Positions 7,230 to 59,644 of a DNA stretch of 64,000 nucleotides are shown piece after piece. The position numbers were made by a program, and so were the translations under genes. The stretch is taken from positions 15,810,001 to 15,874,000 of the forward strand of contig OY740790.1 in the NCBI GenBank assembly GCA_963514005.1, written 5' to 3'. The notes below the pieces were generated by a model that saw nothing but the letters and a program-made list of their open reading frames with translations, ran no database searches and was not told the DNA's origin. This DNA comes from Raja brachyura. Lineage: Eukaryota. Positions within the stretch are counted from its first letter, which is position 1; every line of letters begins with the position of its first letter.

Positions 7230-7890
7230 TATTGGCCAATATGGTCCTTTTGAACAGCCAGTTCCGAGTTGGTATTCCCTTAACCGGGGTCAACAAGCTG
7301 CTCCATTTTGGAGTGTTCAGAGGTTGCTGTGCAGGCCACACGGCCAGCATCTCTGGGCCCGGGGTCAACAAGCTGCTCCATTTAGGAGCTTTCAGTGGTT
7401 GCTGTGCAGGCCATCCTGCCAGCATTGCCAACCTGCTCTTTTTCAGAGCTAGCGATGTTACTGTACAGGCTATGCTGCCAGTGTCTCCGTGCCCGGGTCG
7501 CCAAGCTGCTCCATTTCAGAGCTTTCGCAGAGGTTTGAATGCAGACCCTACCTGCCAGCGTCTCCTTCAACCAGCTGCACCTTATCGGAGCTTCAGTGCC
7601 GATACTTGTGCAGGCCGCGCCTGTTCACCTCTTTGCCCCCACGCTTGACAAACTGCACCCTGTCAGAGCTTTAAATGGAGGTTGCTGTGCAAGTCGTGCC
7701 TGCCAGCGTCTCCGAGCCTGGTGCGACAGGCTGCTCCATTTCGGAGCCTTGGAGGAGATTACTGTGCAGGTCACGCCTGCCAGTTACTCCGAGACCAGGC
7801 CGGGCCACCTGCTCCCTTTCGCAGCTTTAACGGTGGTTGCTGTACAGGTCGCGCCTGTCAGCATCTCCAAGCCCGCTGCACCATTCCTGA
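7230..7890. repeat. Degenerate ~60-75 bp tandem array inside the DIRS element
   Basis: About 9 recurrences of caagctgctccatttcggagctt...gttgctgtgcaggcc. Confidence 0.8.
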
Positions 7891-8254
7891 AAAAAAACAT
7901 CTTACCCGACGGAGCATTTCCGAATGCATCTGTATCTCACGCCATGCGACGGCGTATTGACGTGCATGTGGGCTGGTGGGTTCTTCACGTAGTCACGTCA
8001 CGAGACTGCGAAATAAAATTTATAATGGGCTTCGCCACTCCTTTTACCACCAGTTTATTTGCATTTCTTTGGAAGATTTGTGGTGGGGGTGCCGGAGTGA
8101 TTGTGGAGGCAGATACAATAGTGGCATTTATAAGGCTTTTAGATAGTAACACAGAGGTGCAAAAAATATAGGGATATGGATCATGTAAAGGCAGATGAGA
8201 TCAGTTTAACTTTGCACCATGTTTGGCACTATTCCTGTGCTCTACTGTTCTTTG

Positions 8255-8425
8255 GTTACACAAAAAGCTGGAGAAACTCAGCGGGTGCCGCAGCAGCTAA
8301 GGAGCGAAGGAGATGGGCGACGTCGCCTATTTCCTTCGCTCCTTGGATGCTGCTGCACCCGCTGAGTTTCTCCAGCTTTTTGTGTAGCCCTCGATTCTCC
8401 AGCATCTACAGTTCCTTCTTTAACA
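8255..8425. mobile_element. Fold-back (palindromic) Penelope pLTR mini-insertion with a 15-bp TSD
   Basis: The arms ggttacacaaaaagctggagaaactcagcgggtgc... and ...gcacccgctgagtttctccagctttttgtgtagcc are centred on GACGTC (8319-8324). Flanked by ctctactgttctttg at 8240-8254 and 8426-8440. Confidence 0.85.
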
Positions 8426-10628
8426 CTCTACTGTTCTTTGTTCCTTGCTCACCCATTCTCTTTGCTTATTTTCTATTTATTTCCCCAACTCAATTTATTA
8501 TATTCTGCCTAATTCTCTTAAATTATTCACCGTGATGGATAGTGCTCTTGACCCAATGTTACTAATGTGAATGAACGTTGCTACTGAGATTTTTATTTGG
8601 TTGTAGGTGTCGAGGTTTAATGGAGTCTAATCAACCTTGCAACAATGAAAACTAACTTTTGAAAGTTTTGAGACTCGTACTGCTCAGAATTTAATTGCTA
8701 TGGCAGCATTATTTTTTAATACTTATTAGTGCTGTCTTTTTTTAATCCCTCTATTGTTTACATCAATCTTTTCTTTTTGTCACTCGAATTTTTTTGGTCC
8801 TGGATTTAACATTGAATTTGCTTCTTACCATTCACGTGCTTGTTCAGATCTTTTCACTTCAGACTGTTGTTCATGTGAAACACATGAAATACTTAATCAG
8901 TATTTTGCTGTGAACCACTGGGGAAATTGATTTCTGCTCTTCAAATTCTATTCCCAATTAGGACTGTAATTATAAAAGCTGCATTCCAAATCATTTGTTT
9001 TTTTAATATAATTGTATGCCTTACTTTACAATACCTTTCTTCTTGCCTCTTTTTGGAAGCCTGTGAATCAAGGAGACTCAGTTTCCTCATGCTGTTAACA
9101 TGGATCCTTGTGAAGTGATTGCTGCTTTTCTCTCTGAGTTCATAGTCTCAGAATGAAATAGGCAGCAACGTCTCTAACAGATGGTAGGTACTGTTGGCTT
9201 ATTGATTAATGGAGGTTTCTCTACCATTCCGTTTTTCTCCCTCCTCCATGCAAGCAACATGGATATAAATTTAACCAATGGTACTGATCAAGCATGGCTC
9301 CATTTGAGCATGCAAAATAAATTTGTGCATAAATTAAACACATTTCTTGTGGGTCCAGAACCATTATCTGTTTTTTTCTTCTTTACCCAATTATTGTGGT
9401 TCATTGTCAGTACATGTTCAGAAATCGTTCACTTCAGGAAATGCTTTGACTGAATGTCCAGATGTTACTAATATGCTCCATTGCATGTACATTGAACATG
9501 TATTGACATATGAAGATCCCTTCACAGAACCTGAAGAAGAAATGGAATGATCGCAAAAGAGAACCTTGGGAACAAATGTTGATACAATCTTTAATCAAAT
9601 GAATGTGTTGAACAAATCCAAGGAAAACATTATACTCCCATATTTGTGGTTTACTTTTTGTGACAAAGAATGTCGCTTTGGTTAGTTTGGCAGAGTATTA
9701 AGCTAAGATATAGAACATATTTCATCAAAGTGCCCTGAAACACAAACATACTATTTATCATGTTAAGAAGCTTAATACTCTTTCAATTAAAACCATATTC
9801 TTTCTCCTGGCAAAGTAAACGGAGATAGAAAAATAAATATGATCAAAACTTGGAATTCATTAATATGAGAACATCAGAAAATGTTCAGGTATTTAGTGTG
9901 CAACAGCAAGTGACAAAGAAAGCCTGTGTTGCTGGAACTGTGAATCAGTTTATATAATTGATATAAAGGCAATGTACCTTTGCAACAAAAATGAGCCCTG
10001 AGGTTTAGGCTGGAATTGGTTACATTGTTGTCAAAACGAATTTCAAACCTGTGGCTGAGATGGTTTAGGAGTGAATGGGTTGTTAAATCTGTTGAAAGTG
10101 ACAAAATGTTAGTGAAATTAAACACTAACCCATCAAGCTCCACATTTATCTTGAGTTCATTTGCCCAACTATCTCAAGAGGCGGGTTGCGAAATTCGGTA
10201 GATGTTGTCGAGTTTAACATGCGGTGTGCAGGTTCCCGGAGCTTCCTGAAATTCTGCGATGAGTTGGTATATGGGGGGGGGGGAGGCTGAAGAGTTGACA
10301 GGCCGATCCAGCAAGATAACCTAAAAGCACTCAGCTGCTTTCTTCAACGTTTCTCTGAAAGACTCCTCATAAGTTGTCTTATTATTTGTTATGATTTGGT
10401 CCAACTTTGTGTATGATGGCATTCACTTTCTGTGGTTTGGAAGCATCCACTTGCTAACTGGGATTTCCAGCTCCCCAGGGCTAATCACCTTGGGTGCTTT
10501 TCATGGTGCCAAATGACAGATCCTAGGCTAGCATTCTGGTGCACAGCTACAAAAGATTCAACAGTAGGAGCAGCCTACTCCTCGTAATCCTGGAGTTCCA
10601 CAGTTCATTGGTTCTGTGCATAATGATG

Positions 10629-11032
10629 ACACGGTAGCACAGTGGTAGAGTTGCTGCTTTACAGTGCCAGAGTCCTAAGTTTGATCCTGACCACGGTGCT
10701 ATCTATACGGAGTCTGCAGAAGGGTCGCAACCCCGAAACGTCACCCATTCCTTCTATCCAGAGATGTTGCCTGCCCCGCTGAGTTACTCCAGCATTTTGT
10801 GTCTATCTTCAGAGTTTGTACGTTTTTCCCCTTGACTACATGGGTTTTCTCCGGGTGTTCTGGTTTCCACCCACACTCCATAGACGTACAGGTTTGTAGG
10901 TTAATTGGCTTTGGTAAAAAAAATAATTGTCCCTAGTGTGTGGATAGTGCTAGTGTATGGGGATCACTACTCATTGTGGATTCGGTGGGCCGAAGGGCTT
11001 GTTTCCATGCTGTATCACTAAACTAAACTAAA
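10629..11032 (+). mobile_element. tRNA-derived V-SINE (HE1-like) interrupted by a hammerhead-bearing mini-element (about 10711-10811)
   Basis: tRNA-like head (tagcacagtggtagagt...gtttgatcctg), V-domain (tgggttttctccgggtg.tctggtttcc.cccacactcca.agacgtacagg), CR1-like 3' end gggccgaaggg..tgtttcc and (ctaaa)n tail. Confidence 0.85.
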
Positions 11033-36735: not shown

Positions 36736-39700
36736 ATTTGTATTGTTTTATTGTATTGTTTTGTCAAATTGAATAGTATTGTTCTTTGCAGCATTTGTCT
36801 TTTTACTCTCGGTCACGAAGTGGGAGTTAACAATGGAAAATTGCTCTTCTATATCTTAAAAAATATATATTCCTAAGTTCTGAGCTCCTGGTTGAAATGT
36901 TGACTTTCTGCATTGCATTAGGGATCTCTTCATTGAGTGAATATTTTATACTTAAATTCTGTTGCCTGCTGAAAATTTTCTGATTTTGAGATTTCCTCCT
37001 AGTTTAGTTGAGTTTTAATACATCAGACAAAATCAATTTAATTTGTCTTTCAATTTAGTTGTATGTGATACTACAGCTTTGTTTAATTTAAATTATTTTA
37101 CTTGAGAACTATGTTCTGCAGCTCCATCTAGACTAAAAAGATCCTTTCACTGACGGAATTGAACTTGAATGGCCTAATAGTTTCCAAAAGATGTTATCTC
37201 TGCAGTATAGAAGAATAGGTGGTTTTGTTATCTTTTTTATCTATTTGCCTTTATGTTATCTTTAACTCCCCTTCCCCTTTAACCTTGAAGTTTGAAAGCA
37301 ATTACTCTTTGAGGCTGGTTAAATAACAAGTCATAGGCAATTAGGTACATTACGAGAGTGGGCAGATAAAAAGGGCCTCCTGTAAGGGCGGAGGAAGATG
37401 GCCTTAATGATAAGATATGGTGGAATATTTACGCTGAGAAGCATGTGGTTATCGCAGCTCTGCTCTACTGTGCTGCATTTGCCAGGGTGCTGAAGATGAA
37501 AGGACTGCGACTACACTTGTTCTGTAGCTAATGCACTTGGTGCCTCTCTGCTGTGAAAGGTGAAATCTCGGCTGCCTGTGATTTTTTTTTTGGTGAAATT
37601 TGCTGTACAGTAAAGTTCCCTATTAATATAATTTTAAGTTTACATTTCAAAATAGTGGCACTCAAGAATGCTCATGACCACCAAATGTTTAAGTAGATTC
37701 ATGAGATGTAGTTAATAAATATATCAAAGTGAAAATTCTGCCTGCTTGGAGAGCAGGGCATTAAAACCACGAGACTGCCATTTAAAAATGGCAATGGTCT
37801 AGAAATCTGGTTATATACTTTGTTTTGAACATTGAATTCCCCAAGTTTAGGTCCTCATTTTCTGTTTGGGTAGGGTACAACCTGATGACATGAACACTGA
37901 ATTCTCCAATTTTGGGTAAAATATATCAGCCCCACCCCCTTTTTTAAAATTTACCACCTCTCTTCCCAATGTTCAACCACTTTCTCCTTACTCCCGACCC
38001 ATTCCTCTTATATCCCTTTCTCTGGCTTCACTTTTCACTCCTCCTCTCTCCATTGTTTCTCTCTCCATTTTACACTGTTTTGTCTTGTTATACTATTCTT
38101 ATACCAATGTAAAGCACTTTGGCCAATGAGAGTTGTTTTTTTAAATGTGCTATATAAATGACTTGACGACTTGTTTTCATCTCTAGCCTTTGTCCATCTA
38201 TATGCCAGTGAAACACCCTTGACCGGTATCCTTGCCAGGCTTTGTCCTGCCTTCATCTCCTTTCCAACTTTCTCCGCCCCCACTGCCTCACCTCCCAACT
38301 GCCGGCTAAAGAAGGGTCCCGACTCGCAACGTCACCTCTCCAGGTTCTCCAGAGATGCTGCCTAACCTGTTGGGATACTCTAGCACTTTGTGGGGTTTTT
38401 TGTATACTAGCGTCTGCAGTTCCTTCAATCTCCATATAATTTGTTTTATTTGGTGGAATAGAACCCTATTTCAATTGCAAATTTTGACTATGGCAAGAGT
38501 TGCATGTTATATGACATTAACAAATTTGAATTTTGTACCTGTATACAGACATGCTTGAAATAGTTAAGTATTTGTAGCGGTGATATCAATCCCTGTGTAA
38601 AGCTTCCCTTTCCATTTGTGCTATTTATGAGATAGATCTGTAGATTATCATGTGCCTGATTTTTGCCATGATTAGGTGACATATATTAGTCCTTTCCTGA
38701 ACTCTGCCCATATCATTGGTAAATATTGGTAAAATTCCCTTGATTTCTTGATATAATAATCACATGTTAAAAAATAACATGAAATGTCTTTTCCTTTTAT
38801 CCTTTGGCATTTAATTTTATTTGCAACATAGCAAAACTTCATTCAGAATTATGAGAGAATCAAGACCCAACAAAACCCTGCAAATGGACACTCTGACTGT
38901 TCCATTTATTTCCACTCTATATTTTCAGTTACTTTAGAATTATTGCAGTTAAAAGCCATGTCCAGTTTAGACAGCAACAACGATAATGGCCAACTGGTCA
39001 ATTGCCAGGAACAAAAATTATAGAGGAAAGGATATAGGGTGGAACTCTAAAAAAAAGAATGAAATTAGTTAAGTAAGCTTAAAACCAAAGGTGAGTGACA
39101 TCCTACTTTATTTATTGTTAAAAGTAAACACAAAATAGATCAATGGACAGTGATTTGGAAAATGATGGAACATGTTAGAAATCTACAGATCAATCAGAGT
39201 AATATGTACTAAAGCACGTGCCAGCTCACTTAGAGGACCAAATCAGCATGGACTCATTCTCTGCGGTTGCAAAGAAAGGACTCATTATGGTGAAACAATT
39301 TTCAGCATCAAACAGTACCTCACCTGCTGTGTGTGATTATCTCTGTTTAATAGCCGGCAACGGTCTGGACAATTGGATACAGTAAAACCTAACCTTACTG
39401 CCAACTGTCCATTACAGCATCATGGAAATATTAAATGTGGTCCACAGATGTGGGACAGCTTATAAATATACTGCAAGCCATGGATTCCAGCAAGGTCAAA
39501 CCTGCACTGATTGAAAATCAGTCCAATCGCTGCGAATAAAATTGGTTAAGGAAAGTCAGGACACTCCAAATGTGCATTTATAATAGTATGAAACCAGAGG
39601 ATTAATAAACTTCTACCACATATACAGTTGTAGCAGATTGATTCATATAATGTACTGGGTGCATCATTTGCCCCAAGTCCTTCAGAAAAGATGTTTTTTA

Positions 39701-41827: not shown

Positions 41828-42790
41828 TAGGATACGATACAAATTAATTCATCCCTGGAGGGAAATTGGTCTGCCAACAGTCACAACACAACAAGGTACA
41901 CGAAAACTTGAAATGAAAGTTAAATTGAAAGTGAGAAAAAAAAAGAAAAAGACAAGCGTCTGTTGGCTGGCTGCCGTGTGTGCACAGCACCTGAACCAAA
42001 CAAACAGACAACAAACGAACACAGACTTATCCCTTGGGCAGAGGATTCAAAACTAGAATGCCTCCCCCACACCGGCTCCCCCTTTGTTCTCTCATGGTAC
42101 TTCACAGCGGTTCCCTCGCGACGGGTCCCCATTGTTCTTCACGGTGGCCCCGCAAGGCTCCCGTTATCGCCGAGGCCCCACCAACGCCGATGCTTCTGTT
42201 GCCGCCGAGGCCCCACCAACGCCAAGGCCCCACTGCTGCCGCCGAGGCCCCACTGCTGCCGCCGAGGCCCCACCATCGCCGAGGCCCCTGTTGCCACCAA
42301 GGCCCCACCACCGCCGAGGCTCCCTTTGCTGCCGAGGCTCCCACTGCTGCCACCGAGGCCCCACCAACGCCAAGGCCCCTGTTGGCGCCAAGGCCCCACC
42401 ACCGCCGAGTCTCCCTTTGCCGCCGAGGCCCCACCAACGCCAAGGCCCCTGTTGCCGCCGAGGCCCCACCAACGCTGAGGCCCCTGTTGCCGCCGAGGCC
42501 CCACCACCGCCGAGTCTCCCTTTGCCGCCGAGGCCCCACCAACGCCAAGGCCCCTGTTGCCACTGAGGCCCCACCACCGTCGAGTCTCCCTTTGCTGCCG
42601 AGGTACCCATCTCTGTCGCCGCTTAAACTCCTTCGGCCCAGACAGGCGTCGCCACCCGGCATCTCCGCTGTCCTCTGGGCGTCGTGTGGGGCGAGTCGGG
42701 TCGGGCCTACCGGGGCGCTTTACAGTTGTCAGCGCGGTTGTTCGGCGGTTGGATCAGGCCCAAGCAGCTCTCCCCGGAGCTTGGGGTAGA
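41828..42790 (-). mobile_element. GC-rich non-autonomous retroposon (copy E) containing a minisatellite
   Basis: The minus 3' end ...aatttccctccagggatgaattaatttgtatcgtatc is the same stem-loop tail type as copy A. Confidence 0.55.
42165..42605. repeat. GC-rich minisatellite built from 15/18-bp modules
   Basis: Repeats of gccgaggccccaccaac / gccaaggcccctgttgcc / gccgagtctccctttgcc. Confidence 0.9.
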
Positions 42791-45588: not shown

Positions 45589-45907
45589 GTCAGTCTTTAA
45601 TAACCCTATTTTCATCTATGATGGTAAAGAAGATGCTAGTCTACGATGGCACAATATATGCAAATAATTTGAAGTTAGAGCATGAGTGGCAATTATAAAT
45701 ATTCACACTCGGAGCCACTCTATTATCTGACTCATTATTTAATATAGATGCTACTTTACAACCAGATGAAGAGGGAGGGGGAACATCTTTTGTTAACTTT
45801 GATTATTATTATATGTTATTTCAGACAGTATTGTTTTATTGCTGTATTTTAACTGAACTACTTACTGCATCTTTATATTTCACATTTCCTACTACTCATA
45901 CTTGCAG

Positions 45908-46171
45908 GTATCCCAACGTACCTACTGCTGAATACAACTGGACTCGCACCTCCTGCTCGAGTGGATCGCGTGGAGCTTATCAGCACGTCGGGCAAGACAT
46001 TGAAGACAATTCCAATAAGGTATTACCCTGACCGAAAGCCTTACAGCATCCTGAACATGACTGAATTTATTCCACCCGATGAAGCTTTTTTCTTGAAAGT
46101 GACTGGATATGACACCAAAGAGTACCTCTTCCAGCGAGTATCCAGTGTGTCGTACTCCAACATTGTCCCAG
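45908..46171 (+). CDS. HMCN1: Hemicentin-1 internal exon (equivalent to exon 8), 264 bp
   Basis: ttgcAG acceptor and CAG|GTGAGG donor; (G)IPTYLLLNTTGLAPPARVDRVELISTSGKTLKTIPIRYYPDRKPYSILNMTEFIPPDEAFFLKVTGYDTKEYLFQRVSSVSYSNIVP. Confidence 0.95.
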
Positions 46172-46869
46172 GTGAGGCCCACAGTGGCACAGCATTAAAC
46201 CCTGCAGTGCCAGGTGGATGTTAACATTATTCCACTGCTGTGTGGTGTTAGCAATCAACCTGTTACTGTTTCCATGTGAAAGTAATGTCTGCTCTTTGCA
46301 TGAATTGCTTAATATCTTAAAGTAATGGAGAATGGTTTAAAGCAACTTAATTTTACAATTATTTTAAAGATGGCCACATCCTAACAGGCACCATTGATGT
46401 AACCTTTGGTATAAAAGCATCAGTATTATAATTGCGCATCGGCCTATTCGGAACAGAAGGACATTTCCAGCAAGCAACTATTATATACTAAATGGGATTT
46501 GCAATGTAACCTTTCCTCGTTTGGTAACACTGAGGCTGATTATCGTGCTTCCCTATTAATGATGTGCGCTCTCCGAACAAAACAGGAATTGGCTGAACAC
46601 AGCAAAGATTTTATCATCAGAGCCATTCGAGGAATTGCGTTTTTACATTCCTCTCTTAAATAGGTTTTTGCATCAGTTAAATCAATGCACCATTCTGTCT
46701 GTTTGAAGTTTGTTAAAAGTAATCTTTGTTGAAATAATTAAGTTGGATTGATAAAATGGATTTTTCATGCACAAATACAGTACCCTCCATAATGGTTTGG
46801 ACAAAGACATATCATTTCTTTATTTGCCACTGTATTCCACAATTTGAGATTTGTAATAAAAAATTAAAA

Positions 46870-51286: not shown

Positions 51287-52824
51287 GTTGATGAACAGCA
51301 ATAAAAGTTTCCAAAGGTGATGGAAAGACTGGAGAAAATACTAGGTGCTGGGAGCTCTCTTATACCTGCATTAAGGAGGCATTTAAACACACCTGAGCAA
51401 ATACAAATACCAATGAAGCCATGTGTCCCAAACATTATGTTACCCTGAAATGGGGGGGACTATATATAACACAGCTGTAATTTCTACATGGTGAAACCAA
51501 AATGTAGAAAAATACCCTTTAATAAAATCTGACAATGTGCACTTTAACCACATGTGATTTTTTTCTATTACACATCTCAAATTGTGGAATACAGAGGCAA
51601 ATAAATAAATGATGGGTCTTTGTCCCAAACATTATGGAGGGCACTGTAATTGTTTCCAATTTATTTTCAAAGAGGCGTTTTTGCCATTTTGTATGCTTAT
51701 TTACTCAAAAGAATTTCAATTGTAACAGCACTTTACTTGCAAAGGAAATTCCATGTGACTAATGTAGTGTAGTAGCCTCATTAAAGCCAGGGATGGAACA
51801 CTGCAAATATTGTAGTAACAATCCTCACATTCCATCGAATGGTACCCGCTGTGAACACGTTGTTGCTTCACAGATGTAGCCATAAGAACAGTTACATACT
51901 TTTCAATCTAAAAAAGATTTAAAGTAAATGCATGGATGAAATTGCTTTTGTGTTCTCAGATTACCTGTAATCACTTAGAACAATTTTAAGACCTGCTCCT
52001 TGGGAGAACTAGGGGTGTAGATGATTATCACCAGCATTTAAATCACATTTTCTGCAACAAGGGACCCTAAATCAACCATGACTCATGCCGCAGAGATCAA
52101 CTCTGGTTCTTGCATGTCCCACTGTTCCCACCCTGTCATTTTACCTCAAATGAAGGCTTAAATTTCACCAGAAATTTTCTGTGCTATTAAGTTTCTTAAA
52201 ATATTGCATTTAACTGTAGCCACATGAATCACAGTATACATCAAACATAAAAAGTGTTTGTAAAATAAAATGAAATTATATAATCTCCGGAAGAAAAGCT
52301 TTTTTTTGGTAGAGATGTAGCATTGAGGAACATCTTCTCTCAGGATGAGAACAACATTGGTCGAATAAGCATAAGCAAGCACCCCTGAAAAAACTGTGGA
52401 ACTTGAAGCTGCCCCATTGGACCCAATGGGAACAATGCTGCCACTGGCATGTACTCAAACCACCAATTGACGTCCAAAGACAAACAAGACTCCAAATTAG
52501 CACTGGGTGACCTGTACCATCACTGCTGTGGTCAGTAAAATGGCAGCCATTTGTACATGTCATCAGTGCCATTTTGCAACTAGCCTTGGGGGTTATGATA
52601 TGGCAAAGACAAATATATCACCTTATATTACCTCATGCAAACTGGTTCTGGAGGTTATTTTGTAAAATGAGTGGTGCTAATAAATACTGTGGCATTAAGA
52701 TTTTCTGTGAGACTGTTACCCAGAAGTATGATTTGAAACATGATTTAATATGATGAAAAATATCCATTTAATACCGCCATAAATTTAATTTTAAAAATTC
52801 ACAAAGCATTACTTCTTTCCGTAG

Positions 52825-52969
52825 GTGCTCCAAAGGTCACAATGCCGGCACAGACTCCAGGTTACTATCTGCAGACTGGCTACATCTCATGTACTGTGGA
52901 AAGCCTCATTCCCTTCACGCTGCGTTTCAGCAGAGCTGGTTCAAAACTTGGAACTGACCAGTTTTACAA
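52825..52969 (+). CDS. HMCN1: Hemicentin-1 internal exon (equivalent to exon 9), 145 bp, first half of Ig domain 1
   Basis: ttccgtAG acceptor and CAA|GTATGT donor; (G)APKVTMPAQTPGYYLQTGYISCTVESLIPFTLRFSRAGSKLGTDQFY(K), containing the first Ig cysteine. Confidence 0.94.
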
Positions 52970-53069
52970 GTATGTACAAAAGATACATTTGGATGTGGTT
53001 TCACATATTATCTGCTGTAGTCATGATTTGATCAGCCAAGCTTGTAACATTCATCACTTAGAATATAAG

Positions 53070-53600
53070 GATCAGACATTGGTGGCCAAATTTGGAACAT
53101 TGTGTGCAATTTTGGGCCTCACATCTGAGGAAAGATGTGCTGGCTTTGGTTAGGGTCTCAAAGCGATTTATGAGAATGATCCTGGGATGATTTGATTAAC
53201 GTATGAGGTGCATTTGAAGCCTCTCGGCTTGTACTCACTGGAGTTGAATAGAATGAGGGGGTCATCTCATTTAAACTTTCCAGTTAATGGCCTAGACAGA
53301 GTGGATGTGGAAAGGATATTTCCAGTAATAGGAGCGTCTAGAACAAGAGGGCACAAGCTCAGAAGAAAAGGACATGCCTTTATGAAGGAGATGAGGAGGA
53401 ATTTCTTTAGCTAGAGGGTTTTGAACCTGTGGAATTCGTTGCCACAGACAGTTGTTAAGGCCAAGTCATTGCGTATTTTTAAAGCAGATTCATGATTAGT
53501 AAGCGTGTCAAAGGTTACGCGGAGAAGGCAGGAGAATGGGGTTGAGAGGGAAAAATAGATCAGTCATGATTGAATGGCGGAGTAGACTCTGAGCTGAATG
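53070..53600 (+). mobile_element. Degenerate CR1 3' fragment
   Basis: LGLYSLELNRMRG...SRTRGHKLRRKG...EMRRNFFS. Confidence 0.82.
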
Positions 53601-55067: not shown

Positions 55068-55893
55068 CGCTTTCTCCCAGACTGGCTTCTCATTACCTGA
55101 CTTGTTTGCCATTAATCTTTCATGTTTCTCAGCCATTGTTAATGAGGCTCTGAATCATGTTCTGAAATTTCAGAATGTCACATTACAGCGTGGGAACCTC
55201 TATTAATTGGCTTCGTCTTTTCCTGCAGTTGAATAGGATGCCAAAGAATGCTTCCAAATTTAAATTTATGCTTAAGATTTAAAACCAGACACAATTGCCA
55301 GTTGAAGATCAGAGATATGGGGGCGAATCAACTATAAATATAGATTTAAATGTAGAGATGGCTGGAGGAGTAGAGTGCATCAACTTTTTGTTTTGGCTTG
55401 GCAAATTAAAAACATTTAAAAAAAAAAACTCCTACGTTCTGGATATCGGAAATAAAAACATGATATTAACTACTTATCTTTCCATGGATGCTACCTGAGC
55501 TGCTGAATGTTTCAGGACTCTACTATTTTAACATTACGTCAGTTAGCACATGTAGAAAGTTAATATTTCTGTTCAAAGACCCTTCACCAGTACTGGGAGG
55601 GAGGAAAATGTTTGGATTAAGTTGCAGGAAGGATGGAGGGAGACAGATAGGTCAAGAGGAATATCTCTGGTGGAGTGAGGCCAGGCTCGCCGTAACAATA
55701 AACTTAGCCAAGGTTATTTGGTCAATGGGTTAATGAGGGCAGTTTAGGGAGAGAGAACGTGTATAAACATATCCATAAAATGTACGAACTGAGTGCAGTT
55801 AGTGAGTTGGTTTGTCTAGATGTATCTTTGGTCCTCATTGTACAGTCTCAACATCCATTGCTTTCATTTGAAGAAAAGGGGTAAACTATCAGC

Positions 55894-59539: not shown

Positions 59540-59644
59540 GTATTATCAATCTGAAGAAGGGTCTCGACCCGAAACGTCACCTATTCCTTCGCTCCATAGA
59601 TGCTGCCTCACTCGCTGAGTTTCTCCAGCATTTTTATCTACCTT
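59540..59644 (+). mobile_element. 105-bp hammerhead-bearing pLTR mini-element with a 12-bp TSD
   Basis: Flanked by ctaaatttatct at 59528-59539 and 59645-59656. Confidence 0.85.
59551..59578 (+). ncRNA. Minimal type-I hammerhead ribozyme core (intact, sense to HMCN1)
   Basis: CTGAAGA-A-GGGT-CTCG-ACCC-GAAA-CGTC, with predicted cleavage after C59578. Confidence 0.72.

Follow-up and report, generated by a model that had tools for sequence, protein, structure and literature searches.

Penelope-like retrotransposons pose two open questions, how their inverted ends are built and what role their weak hammerhead motifs play. A 171-bp insertion within the window (the whole 64,000-nt stretch of DNA that was analyzed) is a palindrome whose axis falls in a remnant of such a motif. 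The question raised by this locus is whether the palindrome records cleavage of the RNA template by its own ribozyme or whether the two arms were joined in some other way.

Architecture and family of the 171-bp insertion

The palindrome has two 68-nt arms (8254-8321 and 8322-8389) separated by a spacer of 0 nt and complementary at 62 of the 68 pairs (91%, 6 mismatches). When folded as single-stranded DNA the unit gave -75.9 kcal/mol (z -17.7), a value that none of 200 shuffles equalled. Its centre is GACGTC (8319-8324) with the axis between the C and the G of ACGT, that is, between 8321 and 8322. A direct repeat identical at 15 of 15 positions (8240-8254 and 8426-8440) brackets the palindrome as a target site duplication (TSD); upon 500 shuffles of one flank the longest common word was 11 letters, versus the 15 observed. 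As G8254 belongs to both the TSD and the inverted arm, the TSD can be counted as 14-15 nt and the unit as 171-172 nt. A 36-nt segment without a partner on the left side (8390-8425) separates the right arm from the right TSD. Given the diverged arms and the TSD, an assembly fold-back artefact is unlikely.

Positions on the element are numbered such that +1 is the first base 3' of the predicted hammerhead cut. The landmarks are then the upstream edge of the motif (-31), ACGT (-5 to -2), the short end (+65) and the tail end (+100). The sense arm spans -5 to +100 and the inverted arm -5 to +65, and the overlap of the two is ACGT (Table 1). The unit is a short, 5'-truncated and TSD-flanked stub of a Penelope-like retrotransposon having the inverted-arm-plus-tail layout.

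Table 1 Coordinates of the 171-bp insertion and of the window copies compared with it
Feature	Position	Strand	Basis or remark
Left TSD, 15 nt, last base also in the inverted arm	8240-8254	+	Exact repeat
Inverted pLTR arm, element +65 back to -5, starting at the tail-less short end	8254-8323	-	Start shared with the inverted arm at 25202-25226
ACGT, a 4-nt inverted microhomology present in each arm; in the minimal hammerhead motif it is the helix III palindrome	8320-8323	.	
Predicted hammerhead cut after GTC, 3 nt downstream of the axis; mirror position 8318/8319	8324-8325	+	Alignment to the intact motif at 59551-59578 and the consensus described in PMC4209133
Sense pLTR arm, element -5 to +65	8320-8389	+	
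Penelope tail, 36 nt, one arm only	8390-8425	+	Tail of 30-40 bp as described in PMC8557442, PMC3846280 and PMC11167929
Right TSD	8426-8440	+	15/15 identical
Comparison copy, same subfamily: TSD, inverted arm of about 23 nt from the same short end, sense part of about 885 nt (GIY-YIG remnant, hammerhead motif, tail)	24317-25226	-	
Second palindromic insertion, older subfamily: tailed arm from stem II (about -18), tail-less arm from the motif upstream edge (about -28); 14-nt TSD with one mismatch	28531-28749	.	
Copies starting at the motif upstream edge	3996, 10711, 28652, 36327, 57849; probable 44209, 59549		

The stub derives from the 3' end of an endonuclease-positive (EN+) Penelope-like element. 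Its closest long copy, 24317-25226 on the minus strand, is 93% identical over 106 nt and carries a GIY-YIG remnant that falls short of the Pfam cut-off (E 0.024), the stub itself having no open reading frame. The remnant is preceded by a CxxC linker (CNRKRCYTC). Among 217 candidates there were 40 protein homologues of this long copy, the best named ones being from skates, rays and sharks (Leucoraja, Hypanus, Rhincodon, Mobula and Stegostoma), and an 889-residue relative (P0034) has RVT_1 (E 6e-9) followed by GIY-YIG (E 3e-4). The hallmarks of EN+ Penelope elements found here are therefore a reverse transcriptase (RT) followed by a C-terminal GIY-YIG domain (by way of the linked long copy and the relative), a pLTR with a hammerhead motif, an inverted copy plus tail, and a TSD. 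The CxxC linker before GIY-YIG suggests that the family is Neptune-like by the criterion described in PMC8557442, a linker motif that Nematis shares. Pfam searches found no match in the RT stretch of the 12161-12517 copy and nothing relevant in three open reading frames of the 12-13 kb copy.

Several other assignments were considered and set aside. The Rfam matches at the palindrome (mir-2756, Plastid-psbJ-4 and others) all lay below the gathering score and are generic hairpin matches. A MITE or DNA transposon does not fit, as the inverted arms are not terminal (the 36-nt tail lies outside them), the TSD is 15 nt and the sequence is a retroelement 3' end. Nor is this a non-LTR retrozyme, the definition of which, as given in bioRxiv 10.64898/2026.07.22.740005, is head-to-tail tandem units each with a complete hammerhead; the present unit is single, head-to-head and devoid of the core. 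A metagenome scan for the element gave 66 loci, of which three had BLAST matches of only 20-23 nt and none had longer ones; these were taken as chance matches and dropped.

The hammerhead motif and the ends of the window copies

Intact copies of the family read CTGAAGA, an extra A, a GGGTC/GACCC hairpin, GAAA, CG and TC, which matches the minimal hammerhead consensus as described by Cervera and de la Pena (PMC4209133). The likeness extends to the CTGA-n-GA box, the extra base, the stem II hairpin, GAAA and a palindromic 15.2-16.2 pair followed by UC. The motif was recognized by eye against the published consensus in the copies at 59551, 36603, 13367 and 28652 and in the copies aligned with them. 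In the intact motif (59571) and in copies 36470, 10711 and 38302 the bases directly after GAA are ACGTC. Rfam searches returned no hammerhead match either at the gathering score or at E values up to 1, and the canonical CTGATGA hammerhead pattern had 0 matches. Minimum-energy folding put none of four intact copies into a hammerhead (z -0.2 to 0.8), helix I being short and mismatched. By its sequence the family motif is thus a candidate ribozyme, with cleavage predicted after GUC. In contrast to the intact copies, the 171-bp unit lacks all of the core except its final 5 nt and cannot itself be a ribozyme.

A profile built from ten window copies gave 17 matches. Two pairs of these are the arms of single palindromes and a weak match at 55478 was dropped, leaving 14 insertions; the 5' end is readable in 13 of these, the exception being the copy at 1-74, which runs into the window edge. 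Five of the 13 readable copies clearly start at the motif upstream edge and two more probably do so, five reach more than 100 nt upstream, and one is the 171-bp unit. None (0/13) starts at +1. The 3' ends fall into two classes, +60 to +67 and +92 to +101, and the two arm starts of the 171-bp unit, +65 and +100, match these classes. Non-inverted copies, too, have the short end as their 3' end, which fits an RT start site.

Three insertions in the window are head-to-head, each composed of one short-end arm and one tail-end arm. Their junctions are at -5/-5 (the 171-bp unit), about -28/-18 (28531-28749) and about +43/about -785 (24317-25226), so that one of three lies at ACGT. The 5' sides of four long copies (13363, 16546, 36470 and 38302) gave best local scores of 12-23 and revealed no inverted arm.

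Two further arrangements were seen among the window copies. At 36321-36782 a pair of pLTR insertions with separate TSDs (9 and 11 nt) lie tail to tail and form a 280-bp imperfect inverted repeat, which is not a head-to-head inversion. At 10640-10860 a tail-less pLTR stub that starts from the motif upstream edge lies within another repeat, which we take to be SINE-like, and has a duplication of only 4 nt.

The sequence-only reading of this locus had described a near-perfect pLTR palindrome centred on GACGTC, inserted as a single 171-bp unit with a 15-bp TSD, of Penelope identity and missing the remainder of the ribozyme core. All of this description holds.

Probable joining of the two arms at ACGT

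The bases at the centre of the palindrome bear directly on the state of the RNA template. A downstream RNA released by cleavage would start at GCC (8325), and a cDNA running off its end would stop at 8318, the mirror image of that start. The hexamer GACGTC enclosed by these cut-site positions comes from the upstream cleavage product; thus, the template was continuous over the scissile bond for at least one cDNA, which read 3-5 nt past that bond. A single cDNA can template at most five of the six central bases, and either both cDNAs crossed the scissile bond or one crossed and one untemplated base was added. For the Anolis Penelope system PMC11167929 reports that ribozyme mutants left insertion in vitro unaffected and that no RNA reads ended at the cut. 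The 171-bp unit was likely copied from uncut RNA and is no record of self-cleavage.

We consider it probable that the palindrome arose from two target-primed cDNAs, one per RT start site, that were joined at the self-complementary 4-nt ACGT. What is seen directly is the TSD, the two arm starts (the tail end at +100 and the short end at +65) and the 4-nt overlap upstream of the predicted cut. The endonuclease would nick both strands about 15 nt apart, one nick priming RT at the tail end and the other at the short end. Both cDNAs would then extend for about 70-105 nt, pass the uncut scissile bond and stop in or just past ACGT. Their 3' ends would anneal ACGT with ACGT, followed by fill-in, as in microhomology-resolved L1 inversion junctions. 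The ACGT:ACGT DNA duplex of two such ends (GACGT) has a predicted stability of -4.0 to -5.2 kcal/mol. ACGT would have been used because it is among the few palindromic words near the common 5'-end zone of the family and not because the RNA was cut there. Other palindromic 4-mers of the element are TCGA (-15), TGCA (+30) and AGCT (+50). In favor of this joining of two cDNAs, the layout is as published and the arm starts coincide both with the 3'-end classes of the window and with the RT start sites mapped in vitro. Against it, a symmetric junction is a minority outcome under the null model given below, palindromic junctions are read as self-priming in PMC3846280, and the two-start-site result described in PMC11167929 comes from another clade, Poseidon.

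Self-priming is a possible but doubtful route. A single cDNA (or an antisense template) would fold back near ACGT and copy itself into a hairpin, to be resolved by endonuclease or repair at the short end such that the tail remains on one arm, without any link to ribozyme cleavage. Palindromic inverted Penelope junctions have been published as self-priming products (PMC3846280, as described by Arkhipova et al. 2013) and the tail as a product of endonuclease-mediated resolution (as described in PMC8557442). Moreover, fold-back would give exact symmetry in one step and the same subfamily markers on both arms, which is what is seen. However, priming would be required from at most one terminal base pair across a 2-nt loop, and no terminal hairpin was predicted on the cDNA end, a result that is partly a model assumption since the program disallows loops of less than 3 nt. 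Also against fold-back, the other two inversions of the window are strongly asymmetric, and the short end serves non-inverted copies as well, as expected of an RT start site.

A more specific proposal is that two RNAs were paired via ACGU in a hammerhead dimer and that two RTs, coming from two nicks, met head-on at the interface where their cDNA ends annealed. If true, the ribozyme would be a structural clamp that builds the inverted ends of Penelope elements whether it cuts or not. Minimal Penelope hammerheads have been proposed to work as dimers paired via the palindromic helix III (as described in PMC4209133 and PMC6765202), a dimer is also predicted for the Anolis protein (as described in PMC11167929), and the junction is exactly symmetric at ACGT. 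Two templates would also fit the differences between the arms. Five of the seven substitutions in 8254-8425 are A/T to G/C, the ancestral CpGs have decayed at 0 of 8 sites and the TSD is perfect; given these intact CpGs and this TSD, the 6/68 differing sites may reflect either two templates or palindrome-templated repair, a comparison that is uncalibrated. We nevertheless regard such a helix III hotspot as improbable. This is a single case, two of three window inversions have their junctions elsewhere, and a two-strand fold of an intact copy showed no pairing through ACGU.

Junction positions were also sought beyond the window by comparing contigs of four public runs (4 of the 21 listed, with four organism labels; no RNA data set was among the runs listed) with window positions 24295-25260. 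Of 4008 loose ends, 387 joints and 705 filler joints, the rows listed were 24, 15 and 12, respectively. Among the rows listed, loose ends with unrelated flanks pile up at 24447-24448 (element -30/-31), with at least 284 plus at least 552 (at least 836) for X1 and at least 321 plus at least 554 (at least 875) for X3; single listed rows gave at least 584 for X7 and at least 418 for X10. None of the rows listed falls at ACGT or at the cut (24417-24423), a comparison that perfect palindromes would partly escape. Next to ACGT the contig reference carries two substitutions, and assembly of a perfect palindrome is expected to break off close to its centre; thus, an ACGT hotspot could be missed. We attribute the loose ends at 24411/24412, 24367 and 24356 to subfamily divergence and do not count them as insertion ends.

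A side observation concerns the filler joints, 7 of the 12 listed of which run from 24448 to 24412 or 24415 and so bridge -31 and +6 or +3, with 1-4 letters inserted, in three of the four runs. A same-strand tandem of bare hammerhead cores fits the filler letters of all rows and an inverted join fits those of all but one. The former would provide a tandem ready to dimerize, the latter an inverted arm that completes helix I.

To judge the junction itself we used a null model in which both ends lie between -31 and +65 and are joined at maximal inverted microhomology of at least 4 nt, applied to three intact copies. The ACGT/ACGT join was 1 of 15, 1 of 19 and 1 of 10 distinct solutions in the three copies. 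When arm order was counted these became 1 of 28, 1 of 35 and 1 of 18, and with microhomology of at least 3 nt, 1 of 88 to 127. The exactly symmetric junction is therefore a minority outcome, which could reflect a real ACGT preference or the fold-back route. Given 14 insertions per 64 kb, however, chance ACGT junctions are to be expected now and then; they should arise many times genome-wide, so that a single case counts for little. A junction peak at helix III, if found, would link the inverted ends with the role of the hammerhead; the single 171-bp copy does not provide evidence for one.

The sequence-only reading had proposed that RT ran off a ribozyme-cleaved RNA 5' end and that the cDNA snapped back on ACGT, making the palindrome a footprint of self-cleavage with stem III and the cleavage site at its axis. 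The axis does fall in the self-complementary ACGT of helix III, yet it lies 3 nt upstream of the predicted cut, and this proximity is what speaks for the proposal. Its literal form is contradicted by the central GACGTC, which comes from the upstream cleavage product and indicates an uncut template. A cDNA stopping at the cut has no ACGT on which to fold, and its arms are predicted to abut or overlap at the GC just 3' of the cut, without the six central bases. Snap-back on ACGT itself would leave a loop of 0-2 nt held by at most one terminal pair, which should not be able to prime. The absence of +1 starts among the 13 readable window copies, the different junctions of the other two inversions, the failure of all four intact copies to take a hammerhead shape in minimum-energy folds, and the in vitro findings on ribozyme mutants and Anolis read ends described in PMC11167929 all point the same way. 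The proposal might be rescued by an RT jump over a cleaved but still base-paired nick, or by one cleaved template plus an untemplated base. We judge a cleaved end very improbable and consider the joining of two cDNAs from uncut RNA more likely.

Least credible of all is the later loss of the middle of a longer insertion by a cruciform or by microhomology-mediated deletion between two ACGT copies, as palindromes usually tend to lose symmetry and the creation of a perfect centre would run counter to this, while short insertions of the family are common without such an event. Microhomology-mediated deletions are described as common in Penelope copies (PMC3846280).

Published systems and surroundings

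The unit fits an architecture already published for Penelope. An EN+ Penelope insertion, as described by Craig et al. 2021 (PMC8557442), has an inverted 5'-truncated copy and a tail of 30-40 bp at one end. Pen2a_Av, for example, has a 31-bp tail, a 15-bp overlap and a 9-bp TSD, and overlaps or palindromes occur at the inverted junction, as described in PMC3846280. The 171-bp unit shares with such insertions the 5' truncation, the head-to-head copy, the 30-40 bp tail on one arm, the TSD and an overlap or palindrome at the junction. It differs in being very short, with neither an open reading frame nor a full pLTR, and in having a junction exactly symmetric on the helix III palindrome. Among the freely accessible articles searched, we found no paper that maps Penelope inversion junctions onto the hammerhead.

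Assays with the Anolis Penelope protein in vitro showed that both strands are nicked and extended and that two RT start sites bound the tail (as described by Frangieh et al. 2024, PMC11167929). This element, PAc (Anolis Poseidon), resembles the present family in that a minimal hammerhead motif is followed, a short way downstream, by two fixed arm starts with 36 nt between them. Unlike PAc, the present family has a CxxC linker before GIY-YIG, which is Neptune-like, and the joining of cDNAs is not part of the in vitro result as described there. L1 twin priming (as described in PMC11702581) is alike in that cDNA is primed at both ends of the target, the TSD is kept and the junction is end-joined with short microhomology. 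L1, however, inverts adjacent and mostly non-overlapping RNA segments, whereas the 171-bp unit copies the same 68 nt twice, and therefore two templates, or one that was re-used, were needed.

The remainder of the window contains several other features. A degenerate GC-rich tandem array of 69-78 nt units (7284-7879) lies 400 bp upstream of the 171-bp insertion. Probable host exons are at 45853-46224 and 52749-53153, the first of which has a weak VWA7_4 Pfam match (E 8e-4) below the cut-off; both resemble hemicentin-type sequence. Given these exons, the window repeats may lie in introns. Two LINE-type RT 3' fragments of 918 bp (1421-2337 and 19627-20542) are 99% identical, which by sequence indicates a recently active family. 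Finally, a GC-rich tandem repeat at 42057-42790 has long open frames on both strands.
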